A stretch of 64,000 bases of DNA from a virus, in IMG/VR virus record IMGVR_UViG_3300012351_000008, positions 15,962 to 79,961 of that record. One strand, given 5' to 3'. Position numbers and translations under genes: made by a program. The number at the start of each line of letters is the position of its first letter. Position 1 is the stretch's first letter. The notes below the pieces were generated by a model. It was not told the DNA's origin. It did no database searches and saw only the letters and a list, made by a program, of their open reading frames with translations. Shown piece by piece: positions 2,871-52,435 of this stretch.

Positions 2871-3368
2871 GTGGTATATATGCTGAAAGAGTGGGAACCG
2901 CAAGAAGGGAAGATGCCTTGCCTGTCCATTGCGCAGCCTTTCGCTATGGCGATTATTCAGCGCAAGAAGAAAATCGAACTGCGCACATGGGGCACACACT
3001 ACAAAGGGCTCATTGCTCTCCAAGCTGGAAAGACATGGTACGGAGGCGTGAAGATACCGGGACACCCTACCGAAGCACAAATGCGCCCGATCAAAGAGTT
3101 TGCGCGGAAGTATCAGCTCCCGGCCTGCGTTGGCGATTATCCCACTGGCGCGATTGTTGGCGTGGCTCGTTTAGTGAAGTGCGCCACGTTTACCAGGGAG
3201 GGCTATGAACGGTTGCGTGATCAGCACTGTTCGGATTGTGACTGGACACCGGGGGAGTATGGCTGGCAGTTCGAGGATGTGCAAGCGTTGCCAGAACCGA
3301 TCTATGGCGTTCGTGGGTATCTCGGATTGTTCGCAGTTGATGAGATCGTGCTAGGATGCGATTTGTAG
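2871..3368 (+). CDS. ASCH domain protein
   Basis: CLSIAQPFAMAIIQRKKKIELRTW...GAIVGVARL...GYLGLF matches the ASCH pattern; GGAGG RBS. Confidence 0.85.
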   Translation: MVYMLKEWEPQEGKMPCLSIAQPFAMAIIQRKKKIELRTWGTHYKGLIALQAGKTWYGGVKIPGHPTEAQMRPIKEFARKYQLPACVGDYPTGAIVGVARLVKCATFTREGYERLRDQHCSDCDWTPGEYGWQFEDVQALPEPIYGVRGYLGLFAVDEIVLGCDL

Positions 3369-24079: not shown

Positions 24080-27000
24080 CTAAAAACCCCTCATGCCGGT
24101 ACTGAGCCTTACATTCTGACTTAGTGGTACTCCAATCGCTGAAATAATGGCTTGACTATCAAGCATGACGGTAATGTTGGCTGTTTGCGGACCGCTACCA
24201 CCTCCCAATGAACTATCACCACCACCTACGCCCGCTCCAGTTGACATAGGGTACACATTCGAACCGCTTGGAAGCATTACTAGCTCAGGTCCAGCCTCAC
24301 CGACAAGGGCTAAACCAGATGCGCCTCCAGGCTGAAAGTTCTGTACGCCGCTTGCAAAGCCAGGCAGGCCAAACGTACTGATTGAGATACTCGGCATAGG
24401 AGGCCAGTGGAATTCAGGTAAAGCAGGCCAGTGAAACTCAGGAAGTGACGGCCACTTAAATTCTGGAAGCGCAGGCCATTTGATTTCAGGGAGTGACGGC
24501 CACTGAATGGATGGCAACGAAGGCCATGTAAACGTTGGCAACGAGGGCCAGGTGATTGTAGGTAAAGAAGGCCAGGTGATAGTAGGCAACGAGGGCCATT
24601 GAATCGTTGGCAGAGAAGGCCAGGTGATAGTAGGCAACGAGGGCCAATGAATCTCAGGGAGCGAGGGCCATTTAATCTCTGGCAACGAGGGCCACTTTAT
24701 CTCTGGCAAGGAGGGCCACTTTATCTCTGGCAGTGACGGCCATTTGATTGCCGGTAACGTGGGCCACTTTATCTCTGGCAGTGACGGCCACTTGATTTCA
24801 GGAAGTGACGGCCACTTTATCTCTGGCAAACCGGGCCACTTGATTTCCGGTAGGCTAGGCCATTTTATTTCAGGAAGTGACGGCCATTTGATCTCAGGCA
24901 TCGCAGGCCAGTGAAACTCTCCACCGGCACCAATACTCTGTGCGCCACCGGAACTATCTAATTTGGCGTTGTGTACCAGTACATTATTCGCGTAGTAGGT
25001 GTGTGAGCCATCAACCGTGATGTTATATACCTGGACAATATCACGCATCTGGATAGCGATAAGCGTGCATGTGCCATCAACTGTGTGGACATGATCGCCA
25101 ACCTGAAGGGGAGTTGTGATAAGATTGGGATTCTCCTCTTTTGTACTTTCAGGGGAAAGTGATTTCCACCCCTGCGTGGTTGCGAGAGGATGTGAGTCTG
25201 TTGTCGTAAGTGTATTGCCATCAGAAAACGTTAGCTCATAAACCTGCTTCTGAGGCAACACAATACGAGCTAGTATAGTTGTAGGTACTTGTGCCGTGCC
25301 ATCATACGCAAGAACCTGCTCACCTTCTTGCAGCGTTTCAATTGGTTTCTCTGTACCATTAGCCATAAGTACGCGTGTGCCAGCAACAAAACAACCACCG
25401 GCAAAGGAACCACCTGCACCACTGGCACCGCCTCCACCAGTCAGATTATTCCATAACTGTCCTATACCTCCAAAGGTTTGACCTGCACCACCAAACATCT
25501 GACCGATATCTTGCCCAATTGCTGAACCTTGAAAGGCTTGCCCTATACCACCAAAATCAATACCTTTACCGGGGCCAAATAATGCACTACCACTGCCTCC
25601 ACCACTACCACTACCTCCACCGACGAAATTGCTAAAGGCGCTGCCTATACTGTTTCCAACTTTACCCCAATCACCCTGCTGAATTGCTGATCCTATATCT
25701 TGCGCGTATGTTGGCGGGTTGGTATTATAATTTGTCATTGCCTGTTCATCGGCCCGCGTAGCCTGATCATTGTTATACTTTACTGCCTCTTGCTGTGGCG
25801 ATACATAATGTGAAGCATTATAGGACGACTGTCGCTGTTGCAAGAACTTTTGAGCCGCGCCAGCATCATCCTGTGATTGAAGATAATTGGGATCGAGTGC
25901 GTCAGCCATTATTGTTGCGGTTTGCGCTTGTGATTGTAGGGTTTGCGCTGCAACTGTTTGAGGAAGTTGCGCCATTTGCTGTTGATAGTTTATTTGCGCT
26001 TGTGCTTGCGGTCCTGGTCCTTGGAATGGTTCAGGGAGTCCAAGCATTTGAGCACCCTGGTTAATCCATCCTTCAGTACCACTTTGAATCATCGACATTC
26101 CAAGTCCCTGCATACCAGGAACAGTCATTGAAACCAATCCACCCACTACTTGAAGGTTGTTTGCAATATCACTTGTCAACCCACCTAAAAACCCCCCAAC
26201 TCCGCCAGCGCCACCCTGGTTCATCTGATAATTTATCGCGTCTAAGGTCGGCATTATCTGCTTGCCGAAACTTTCAGAAAACGTTTCTCCTGCTTGCTGT
26301 GCTGACTGCCCGAGCGCATCGACGCTACCCGTGAATGTGCCCATGCTATGCGCCGCTGGCCCCTCAGCGATTGCCGCAGCATCATAGATACCCTGCCCTA
26401 CTTGCTGGACAGCCATACCAACCATTTGTACCGCCATGAGTGGCATGATAAACTGGCTTACGCTGTTGACAACACCGCCAACATCACCGAGTGCCCCCAT
26501 GAGTGTTTCACCTAAACTCATGGATTCCATTGCCTTGCCCGCACCTGCTACCGCTCCGCTTGTTTCTCCTGCGGCCTTCCCTGCACTTGCTATTATTCCG
26601 CCTGTTTCTCCTACAGACTTACCCGCATCTTCCGCTGCGCTACCCATCGCATTGAACTGATCAGTAAATGCCTGCGTCTCCCCGCGTGATTCACTAAAAA
26701 CCTGCCCTGTTGACTCTGCATTCGTGTTGAGTTTATTCAGCGATTCACCGGCAACATTGGCATTTTGAGCCATGTCATGAAGCGCCGCAGTATTCTCCCC
26801 ACCGATGCTACTGTTAAAATCACTCCATGTTTGCCCTGTCTCGCCCAAGTAACTATTAATCATGGAAAAGGGGTAAGGGTTAGATAACGCATCCTGAAAG
26901 ACGCCCATGTTTTCGGCAAAGGTATCCAGGCCAAATTGCTTGGGGTCGAACGCCTGGCTAACTTCGTGGAGAGAGTCTGCAAACTGTGGCAACATCGGGG

Positions 27001-27472
27001 CCGCTTGCGAGAGTGAATCCCCAAGTTGCGCGAAGTTATCACTGACCGGCTGTATTTGTGTTGCTAGAGATTGCGCATTTTCAGTAAGAGCAGCCATAGG
27101 AGACGATGCAGCCTCTATCTGCTTGACAGTTGCGCCTAGTGGCTCTTGCAATGCCTCATAAGCGCTTCCAGTGTCAAGCAAAGCCTGTTGATGCTCTCCA
27201 AGTACACCTGATACTTCGGAAACCATCGTTCCGCCTTCTTGAAGCGAACCGAATGTATTTTTAGCTGCTTCACCGAGCGGAACAATCGCCTTTGTCGCCT
27301 CCTCTGCCTGACCACCCAATGCAGTCAGTGCATTCCCAACGCCACCTACACCTTCTCCCGCCCCACCCGCTACACCTTGCAGCGCTGCGAGAGCGGCTGC
27401 GGCCTCTTCCGCTCCAGACGTGTCTGCCTCAATCCGTACTTTGGCTATTATATCGTCACTAATCTTTATCAC
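24080..27472 (-). CDS. tape measure protein with internal Hint domain
   Basis: Ala/Gly-rich helical body after the chaperone pair; C-terminal LPGFASG...VGEAGPELV; Hint CFVAGT...VYNITV...LVHN. Confidence 0.85.
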   Translation of the reverse strand: MIKISDDIIAKVRIEADTSGAEEAAAALAALQGVAGGAGEGVGGVGNALTALGGQAEEATKAIVPLGEAAKNTFGSLQEGGTMVSEVSGVLGEHQQALLDTGSAYEALQEPLGATVKQIEAASSPMAALTENAQSLATQIQPVSDNFAQLGDSLSQAAPMLPQFADSLHEVSQAFDPKQFGLDTFAENMGVFQDALSNPYPFSMINSYLGETGQTWSDFNSSIGGENTAALHDMAQNANVAGESLNKLNTNAESTGQVFSESRGETQAFTDQFNAMGSAAEDAGKSVGETGGIIASAGKAAGETSGAVAGAGKAMESMSLGETLMGALGDVGGVVNSVSQFIMPLMAVQMVGMAVQQVGQGIYDAAAIAEGPAAHSMGTFTGSVDALGQSAQQAGETFSESFGKQIMPTLDAINYQMNQGGAGGVGGFLGGLTSDIANNLQVVGGLVSMTVPGMQGLGMSMIQSGTEGWINQGAQMLGLPEPFQGPGPQAQAQINYQQQMAQLPQTVAAQTLQSQAQTATIMADALDPNYLQSQDDAGAAQKFLQQRQSSYNASHYVSPQQEAVKYNNDQATRADEQAMTNYNTNPPTYAQDIGSAIQQGDWGKVGNSIGSAFSNFVGGGSGSGGGSGSALFGPGKGIDFGGIGQAFQGSAIGQDIGQMFGGAGQTFGGIGQLWNNLTGGGGASGAGGSFAGGCFVAGTRVLMANGTEKPIETLQEGEQVLAYDGTAQVPTTILARIVLPQKQVYELTFSDGNTLTTTDSHPLATTQGWKSLSPESTKEENPNLITTPLQVGDHVHTVDGTCTLIAIQMRDIVQVYNITVDGSHTYYANNVLVHNAKLDSSGGAQSIGAGGEFHWPAMPEIKWPSLPEIKWPSLPEIKWPGLPEIKWPSLPEIKWPSLPEIKWPTLPAIKWPSLPEIKWPSLPEIKWPSLPEIKWPSLPEIHWPSLPTITWPSLPTIQWPSLPTITWPSLPTITWPSLPTFTWPSLPSIQWPSLPEIKWPALPEFKWPSLPEFHWPALPEFHWPPMPSISISTFGLPGFASGVQNFQPGGASGLALVGEAGPELVMLPSGSNVYPMSTGAGVGGGDSSLGGGSGPQTANITVMLDSQAIISAIGVPLSQNVRLSTGMRGF
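24392..24910 (-). repeat. 22 tandem 24-bp repeats encoding WPSLPEIK-like octapeptides
   Basis: Trp codons every 24 nt from 24910 to 24404. Confidence 0.92.
24968..25393 (-). other. Hint (intein-like) domain, 142 aa, no endonuclease
   Basis: Starts CFVAGTRVLMANG, has TTDSHPL block B, ends YYANNVLVHN followed by Ala. Confidence 0.88.
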
Positions 27473-29021: not shown

Positions 29022-29405
29022 TTACGAATACGTGATTGCGCCTGTGCCTGTGAAGCTGAAATCTACCGTTTCTGCGTTCTGGACATCGACGTTTGGGTCA
29101 ATGCCCGTAAGTATTGCCGACCCAGTAAATGCGTGCGGGGTACTTTGAATAGTGAACGTCATCGAAACCGTTGAATTGAGTAGCGCAAACAAATTTGTTT
29201 GCGCCGTATCGCTCGAATCGATAAAGGCGGTGATCTTTCCAGACCAGGATTTGAGTGTGGCGAGGTTCACCGTCCAGTTGCCCGAAGCCCCAAAAGGCGT
29301 GACATCTTTTGTTGCACCTTTTAGTGATAATGTCCACTTAGATGCATCGGTGAATGCAGTTGCGGCTTCTGACACAGAAGCCCCGATACCTGCGAGTGCA
29401 GCCAA
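29022..29405 (-). CDS. major tail tube protein
   Basis: TTG start after AAGGAG; WTLSL...DVTPF...LKSWSG...VDFSFTGTGAI. Confidence 0.78.
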   Translation of the reverse strand: MAALAGIGASVSEAATAFTDASKWTLSLKGATKDVTPFGASGNWTVNLATLKSWSGKITAFIDSSDTAQTNLFALLNSTVSMTFTIQSTPHAFTGSAILTGIDPNVDVQNAETVDFSFTGTGAITYS

Positions 29406-29445
29406 TTTTTTACTCCTTCTTAAAGGTAAAGGAGGATATGGCACA

Positions 29446-29519
29446 TAAAAACAAGCCATACCTCGAAATGTCAATTTTCGATCGGTATGGCCTCTAGGAC
29501 TCCGGGTGTGTATTCAGTT
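29446..29519 (-). terminator. terminator with variant GAGTCC/GAGGCC repeat and AACTGAATA box
   Basis: GCCATACC/GGTATGGC stem plus T-tract, downstream of the zinc-ribbon gene. Confidence 0.6.
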
Positions 29520-29533
29520 ATAAAATCTATATA

Positions 29534-29746
29534 TTATCTCCGGTCAGCGATATCTGACCACAAAATGTGATGTTCCATATGACAGCCGCGACACCAGCAC
29601 CATTGTCCACCTGATACACTCGCTAACTGTGTAAGACTTGCCGTGTCAATACGTGTGAGCAGCTTCTTTGTCTGCTTGCAAAAGATCGGTGTGCGTTCTA
29701 GTTGAGTGCTGGCTCCATTATACTGTATACTTGTGTTTGTTGCCAT
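29534..29746 (-). CDS. Com-like zinc-ribbon protein (putative RNA-binding regulator)
   Basis: IFCKQTKKLL...WCRGCHMEH resembles the Com pattern CxxCxKLL...CxxC, with the second Cys replaced. Confidence 0.5.
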   Translation of the reverse strand: MATNTSIQYNGASTQLERTPIFCKQTKKLLTRIDTASLTQLASVSGGQWCWCRGCHMEHHILWSDIADRR

Positions 29747-52370: not shown

Positions 52371-52435
52371 AAAAAGCCGTTGGCAGGTGTGGCGCAACGG
52401 CTCGTGGGATATTCTTGTTTGATGGAAGTATAGCA
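52371..52435 (-). promoter_or_regulatory. late leader: extended -10 plus tandem motif overlapping a terminator
   Basis: TGCTATACT (52427-52435); ACGAGCCGTTGCGCCACA (52388-52405); AGCCGTTG/CAACGGCT stem plus T-tract. Confidence 0.75.

Follow-up and report, generated by a model that had tools for sequence, protein, structure and literature searches.

A rare family of small phage zinc-ribbon proteins encoded next to a terminator-bearing tail tube leader, with a possible Com-like regulatory role

Gene organization of the neck-tail locus

The window analysed here is a stretch of 64,000 nucleotides that forms part of a viral record of 79,961 bp (IMG/VR record IMGVR_UViG_3300012351_000008), and the features considered below are all encoded on its minus strand (Table 1). 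As had been predicted from the sequence alone, a 70-aa ORF is found between a gene encoding an HK97-gp10-like neck protein and the tail tube gene, its ATG directly adjoining the TAG stop codon of the neck gene. The tube gene is followed on its 3' side by a second tube-like gene, by the gene of a tail assembly chaperone (TAC) and by an intein-bearing tape measure gene, and the four are presumed to be the target of the regulation discussed in this study. The tape measure protein displays a Hint/intein-like insert together with a long run of WPSLPEIK-type 8-residue repeats that occur with a 24-nt period in at least 17 copies.

Table 1. Position of the genes and leader elements in the window
Feature	Position	Strand	Description
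Neck1/HK97-gp10-like gene, 137 aa	29747..30160	-	Match to phrog_5 (tail completion/Neck1)
Short-form zinc-ribbon gene, 70 aa	29534..29746	-	Knuckle 1 CxxT, knuckle 2 WCxxCHxEH
AACTGAATA	29511..29519	-	Contains the AATA box, kept 6-8 nt 5' of CGGAG in relatives
Tandem GAG(N)CC motif, GAGTCC-TA-GAGGCCA	29488..29502	-	Unit 1 single-stranded, unit 2 forming the terminator 5' arm
Intrinsic terminator (attenuator)	29447..29493	-	16-bp interrupted stem and U-run; hairpin of -20 kcal/mol
Second GCCATAT box	29435..29442	-	Directly after the U-run, kept in relatives
Anti-SD/SD hairpin	29413..29434	-	CUCCUU with AAGGAG; pairs the tube gene ribosome-binding site
Tail tube gene	29022..29405	-	TTG start at 29405; Phage_tail_2 and phrog_1407 matches
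Tape measure gene	24080..27472	-	Hint/intein-like insert
8-residue repeat run	ca. 24393..24910	-	Within the tape measure gene
Long-form paralog, 95 aa	52453..52740	-	Zinc-ribbon-like N-terminus and long C-terminal helix; directly 5' of the first late promoter-leader-terminator
General late leader 1	52371..52405	-	ACGAGCC-N3-GCGCCACA overlapping a terminator; extended -10 TGCTATACT upstream

The 70-aa ORF defines a rare family of small zinc-ribbon proteins

Sequence comparisons indicate that the 70-aa ORF is a genuine gene under purifying selection. Seven homologs of ca. 70 aa, with 59-71% identity, were recovered by a word-based search, and codon differences relative to orthologs were more often synonymous than non-synonymous (e.g. 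16 to 9 and 20 to 17). The family is rare, with only 18 clusters detected at E<=1e-3 when 1.84 billion (1.84e9) representatives were exhaustively searched with a profile. The 70-aa product has no match in cultured phages by tblastn, matches no Pfam family (hmmscan, E<=0.1) and no PHROGs family, structural ones included, and a profile search with the family against PDB sequences returned nothing significant; ESM Atlas scores for the protein were below 0.8 and uninformative.

In an alignment of 24 sequences, C23, W51 and C52 are invariant while R32, C55, H56 and H59 are nearly so. The original prediction had noted that one expected Cys of the window protein is a Thr, and this is borne out as a conserved trait of the family, the second-Cys position of the first knuckle being occupied by Thr or Ser in nearly all 24 sequences and by His in two members. 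The 70-aa protein is the short form of a new, rare and small family of phage zinc-ribbon proteins having a site of three Cys and one His. A compact subfamily without the inserted helix described below (alignment A9, e.g. L181:1823-2017) was also recognized, and four of its six members have a sub-threshold match (best E 4.7e-4) to DUF5319, a Pfam family of unknown function.

An AlphaFold2 model of the 70-aa protein, built on an alignment of 11 sequences, has a mean pLDDT of 80 that rises to 87-94 over the core (residues 18-68). It comprises two beta-hairpins (strands 18-22/29-34 and 47-52/57-62) each carrying one knuckle, at C23 and at C52-C55 respectively, as well as an inserted helix and a C-terminal helix; the conserved residues of the predicted zinc site are C23, C52, C55 and H56/H59. 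Fold searches of the PDB gave weak matches only, mostly to zinc ribbons and to no specific family, the best including bL33-type ribosomal proteins (rmsd of 2.6 A over 43 residues, Z of 3) and the ribbons of the RNA polymerase subunits Rpb9/A12/C11. In BFVD, the matches were small phage "cysteine-rich" proteins with a TM score of ca. 0.5. The predicted model thus supports the zinc-ribbon-like fold that had been anticipated for this protein.

Anatomy of the tail tube leader

Both elements expected 3' of the ORF, namely AACTGAATA and the variant repeat GAGTCC-TA-GAGGCCA, are present, and so is the terminator that the original prediction had regarded as belonging to the ORF itself. The latter is not private to the short gene but is part of a leader that is conserved 5' of the tube gene and is counted here as that of the tube gene. 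Some relatives possess an extra ORF between the zinc-ribbon gene and this terminator-bearing leader. It occurs 5' of the tube gene at every short-gene locus for which enough downstream sequence is available, that is at 5 viral and ca. 18 metagenome loci, in a constant order: an AATA box, CGGAGCC, a gap of 2-5 nt, a terminator whose 5' arm reads (GAG)CCATA, a U-run, a second GCCATA and a hairpin in which an anti-SD sequence pairs with the SD of the tube gene. The window's own version of the tandem motif is degenerate (GAGTCC/GAGGCC).

The outer pairs of the terminator stem covary among loci, with GAGCC/GGCTC, GAGACC/GGTCTC and GAGGGCC/GGCCCTC combinations. The SD of the tube gene is paired in 17 of the 19 leaders, by differing sequences, and the start codons are weak, often TTG or GTG. 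Such an association of an SD-sequestering hairpin with TTG or GTG starts, found in the window and in L001-L005 and L142-L168, is unusual for a major structural gene. The AATA box within AACTGAATA may have a -10-like role; a sigma-70 -35/-10 pair was detected over the end of the ORF and is not conserved in relatives, and no dedicated promoter of this type could be assigned to the tube leader. No Rfam family matched the window at the gathering threshold.

The stretch at which the short gene meets the tube leader looks like a hot spot for insertions. Two loci have an additional ORF of ca. 100 aa with a CPxCH motif at this place (L004:9020-9322 and L005:10161-10457), and a 273-aa ORF that is endonuclease-like by eye is inserted there in genome G015 (L181:2024-2845).

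General late leaders and a long-form paralog

Six copies of ACGAGCC-N3-GNGCCACA were found in the genome, all on the late strand. Each of these general leaders overlaps a terminator and most have an extended -10, such as TGCTATACT, upstream. When the tube leader is included, one unit of the motif lies in the 5' arm of the terminator in all seven leaders of the window (7/7): this is the first unit in three general leaders; the tube leader and the remaining three general leaders have the second unit there. The motif comes in two flavours, GCCACA and GCCATA. An exact-pattern scan of viral contigs with the 18-nt motif yielded mostly chance single matches, a terminator being associated with 9 of 118 matches, all nine from relatives.

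The first general leader is directly preceded by a gene encoding a 95-aa protein with conserved C8, C35, H38 and C45, whose model combines a beta-rich N-terminus with a long C-terminal helix and has no meaningful match in the PDB by fold search. Its relationship to the 70-aa family was established through relatives. In genome G012, the family profile detected a 97-aa protein (P0030) encoded just 5' of the small terminase gene; the N-terminal half of P0030 aligns with the short family (hhalign 93.5%) while the whole protein matches the 95-aa ORF of the window (BLASTP 1e-12). Likewise, the short-family alignment matches a four-member long-form alignment (A7) with hhalign 90% and E 1.4e-6. A direct comparison of the 95-aa protein of the window with the short family gave no hhalign signal, and the link between them is transitive via P0030 and L204. 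An extended -10, a GAGCC tandem and a terminator come within 20-150 nt 3' of the long-form gene in four lineages (G000, the G003 group, L204 and G012). Among the genes that G000 and G003 have in common 5' of the first leader, no regulator was recognized by Pfam or PHROGs. Encoded directly before the first of the six leaders, the long form is by position the best candidate, and the more likely reader, for the general leaders.

Comparison with Mu Com

The Com protein of phage Mu carries a CCCC zinc finger at its N-terminus, with Cys at all four ligand positions, and its binding site adjoins a translation-inhibiting hairpin that hides the mom start; SELEX with a Com zinc finger yielded GAG(N)2CC-(N)2-3-GAG(N)2CC, a motif in two parts, and the smallest unit bound was CC(N)2-3GAG (PMC6483171). 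Several features of the tube locus recall this system. The 70-aa protein is similarly a small zinc-knuckle protein (ca. 60-70 aa) encoded directly 5' of its would-be target and on the same transcript, K-L-L-x-[RK] follows its first knuckle, and the region downstream has tandem GAG..CC units beside a hairpin hiding a translation start. The motif of the tube leader, GAG(N0-2)CC-N2-5-GAG(N0-2)CC, is strikingly close in form to the Com SELEX motif, although little information is contained in short GC-rich motifs of the CC-N3-GAG kind.

The assignment to the Com family, which had been made by eye, is not supported at the sequence level. No match to PF10122 (Zn_ribbon_Com) was obtained in the window's own genome even at E<=10 and, when compared to an alignment of five Com proteins (A3) composed of Mu Com, taken from the Mu record, and of its counterparts from Mu-like phages, the whole family (A2) gave hhalign 8% over 15 columns. 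The compact subfamily reached 37% (E 3.5e-4) over 35 columns that include both knuckles. A remote relationship to Com is possible, and the 70-aa protein is, as far as these comparisons indicate, not a demonstrable Com homolog. It further differs from Com in its site of three Cys and one His, in which Thr occupies the second ligand position, and in the helix inserted between the knuckles in most members. Moreover, the downstream gene encodes a tail tube protein, whereas com lies 5' of a DNA modification gene of the mom type and overlaps it, and the motif here overlaps an intrinsic terminator, so that the main effect proposed below is antitermination, an activity that Com is not known to have.

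Distribution of the two forms and of the leaders in related genomes

Gene forms and leaders were scored in five near-complete genomes that are related mosaics. Both forms are present in G000, along with six general leaders and one tube leader. G003 (103 kb) has the long form only and six leaders, and the complete genome G012 has the long form only and four leaders, none of which is at the tube gene. Conversely, G015 (complete, with terminal repeats) has only the short form and a single leader located at the tube gene, while G014 (85% complete) has neither form and no leader. The co-occurrence that had been proposed as a check is thus observed, the long form accompanying the general leaders, the short form the tube leader, and the lack of both the lack of leaders. 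As a test this is weak, given the relatedness of the genomes and the physical adjacency of the short gene and its leader, whose joint presence or absence could result from a single insertion or deletion.

The terminase (67%), portal, capsid, lysis-region and fibre genes of G003 are common to the window genome while its tail module is different, and no short-form gene was found in it. G012, whose tube protein is 90% identical to that of the window, lacks the short gene and has no leader at its tube gene. Where tube loci are devoid of the short gene, as judged over 3 kb of upstream sequence, the leader is mostly absent as well (L166, L169-172, L176-180 and L187). The exception is L165, a fragment of the incomplete genome G011, in which a canonical tube leader comes right after the gp10-like gene with no short gene there. 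This locus has a double leader (L165:2817-3000) in which a good -10 (GCTATAAT) is followed by a general-type GAGCC unit with a terminator and then by a tube-type unit with a terminator. In phages L166, L169-L172 and L176-L180, a different conserved spacer of ca. 100 nt, having no GAGCC and no terminator, separates the gp10-like gene from the tube gene (tube start at 3001) and may represent an alternative leader structure. As for the hosts, the closest TerL relatives have 41-43% identity and come from phages of many hosts, a scan of genome contigs gave a single weak and partial match to a Glaciecola MAG, on which no host assignment was based, and the HIP1 count speaks against any clear cyanobacterial signature.

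A possible antitermination role and its alternatives

Taken together with the published RNA motif of Com, the co-occurrence of gene and leader strengthens a regulatory, Com-like mode of action, which is plausible. We tentatively favour, with a confidence that falls slightly short of even, the reading in which the 70-aa protein is a Com-like RNA-binding regulator that would gate only the tube leader, by antitermination and possibly by translational activation as well. On this reading, which is drawn from gene position and comparative data, the protein would bind zinc and RNA. Made from the transcript of the neck operon, it would act as a sequence-specific RNA binder, as Mu Com does, and would bind the tandem GAG(N0-2)CC units of the nascent leader just 3' of its own gene. 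Because one unit of the motif always corresponds to the 5' arm of the terminator, binding would compete with formation of the hairpin and RNA polymerase would read into the tube, chaperone and tape measure genes; the adjacent hairpin that hides the SD of the tube gene may also be opened by the protein.

Bacterial proteins that read short repeated units in a leader and thereby decide between termination and read-through are exemplified by TRAP (GAG/UAG repeats), BglG/LicT and HutP. However, TRAP promotes termination and needs 9-11 repeats, and LicT stabilises an antiterminator hairpin, whereas here a zinc-ribbon protein is proposed to occlude the 5' arm of the terminator directly; none of these proteins is related to it in sequence.

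Alternatively, the short gene might encode a small zinc-stabilised protein of neck or tail assembly, or a virion accessory protein, in which case the tube leader would be read by the long form, by a host protein or by nothing at all, as a constitutive partial attenuator. The fixed position of the gene in the neck-tail module and its translational coupling to the gp10-like gene are in line with such a role, as are L165, in which the leader is kept without the gene, and G003 and G012, in which the motif works without the short form. Its product is nevertheless not a required part of the virion, because phages with a tube protein of 83-90% identity lack the gene (L166 and L169-172). The long-form homologs are encoded 5' of the small terminase gene and outside of the structural module, no PHROG structural family is matched, and we regard a structural role as unlikely.

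The patchy distribution of the short gene among close relatives, between conserved gp10-like and tube genes, together with the other ORFs inserted at the same junction (in L004, L005 and G015), might instead suggest a mobile, moron-like addition with an unrelated function, host-directed or anti-defence for instance, that is tied to the leader by location only. A moron in the sense of Hendrix is an extra gene that has a promoter and a terminator to itself and is inserted between conserved genes; a terminator does follow the short gene, yet it persists without the gene in L165. The gene has no conserved promoter of its own, its start abutting the upstream stop codon, and a moron would leave unexplained why both paralogous forms, in two different genomic contexts, are directly followed by leaders of one and the same kind; such an origin therefore appears distinctly unlikely to us.

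Whether the GAG..CC element is read in DNA or in RNA bears on a further alternative. Phages do possess small zinc-finger late activators, such as Ogr of P2, and direct GAGCC repeats in duplex DNA would suit a dimeric DNA-binding late transcription factor resembling Ogr/Delta in size and in zinc use, and the long C-terminal helix of the long form could mediate dimerisation. The distance between the -10 and the motif, however, varies from 6 to 51 nt in the window phage and its relatives and, because of this variation, the element would be read in RNA rather than as part of a promoter geometry. Without exception, moreover, the motif is found on the sense strand and overlaps the 5' arm of a terminator, no space for a promoter is left between the terminator and the ribosome-binding site of the tube gene, and no Pfam Ogr_Delta match was found. 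These sequence features point to recognition at the RNA level and make a DNA-binding factor improbable.

Finally, the original prediction that a single 70-aa protein reads all seven tandem GAGCC sites in trans, which drew on the motif type that the six general leaders have in common with the tube leader, on a likeness to Com seen by eye and on the similar Com RNA motif, is very improbable, because G003 has six bona fide leaders (and the complete G012 four) without the short gene and with the 95-aa paralog type instead, G015 with the short form only has the tube leader only, and the short gene itself lies 3' of four leaders that would need opening. The location of the short gene inside the late operon, 3' of another leader, likewise indicates that it is not the primary late switch.

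A possible distributed late-gene regulon

A broader and more speculative reading of the data, which we consider possible though doubtful, is that the short and long forms together constitute a new class of phage Com-like RNA-binding antiterminators that control a distributed late-gene regulon. The terminase/portal, capsid, spike, neck, tube and fibre modules would each be locked by a promoter-proximal terminator with a GAG..CC repeat in its 5' arm, and the protein would open every lock locally. The position of the long form recalls that of Q in phage lambda: no other gene intervenes between it and a strong late promoter, behind which come at once a terminator and then the terminase and head genes. 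Unlike in the PR'-qut-tR' system, neither form has a match to the Q family, to Pfam or to a PHROG, the recognition element is in the transcript and overlaps each terminator, and, in place of a single loading site with processive read-through, each genome has 4-7 sites. The spacing from the promoter is also variable (6 to 51 nt), as opposed to the fixed geometry of the DNA element bound by Q. If true, such a regulon would be mechanistically distinct from N/nut, Q/qut and put RNAs while being evolutionarily linked to the translational control exerted by Com.

Should antitermination prove wrong, the locus still provides a new, uncharacterised family of small proteins and a tail tube gene with a well-defined, structured leader. 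If it is right, the specificity with which zinc ribbons recognise RNA could be studied in a natural system, thanks to the two paralogs and the two flavours of the motif (GCCACA and GCCATA), and synthetic biology would gain a compact and orthogonal antitermination part. Soil phages would then time their late genes by means of a zinc-ribbon protein of ca. 70-95 aa and a motif of ca. 15 nt that overlaps a terminator, which would carry the Com paradigm beyond translation to the termination of transcription and represent a new solution to the control of phage late genes.
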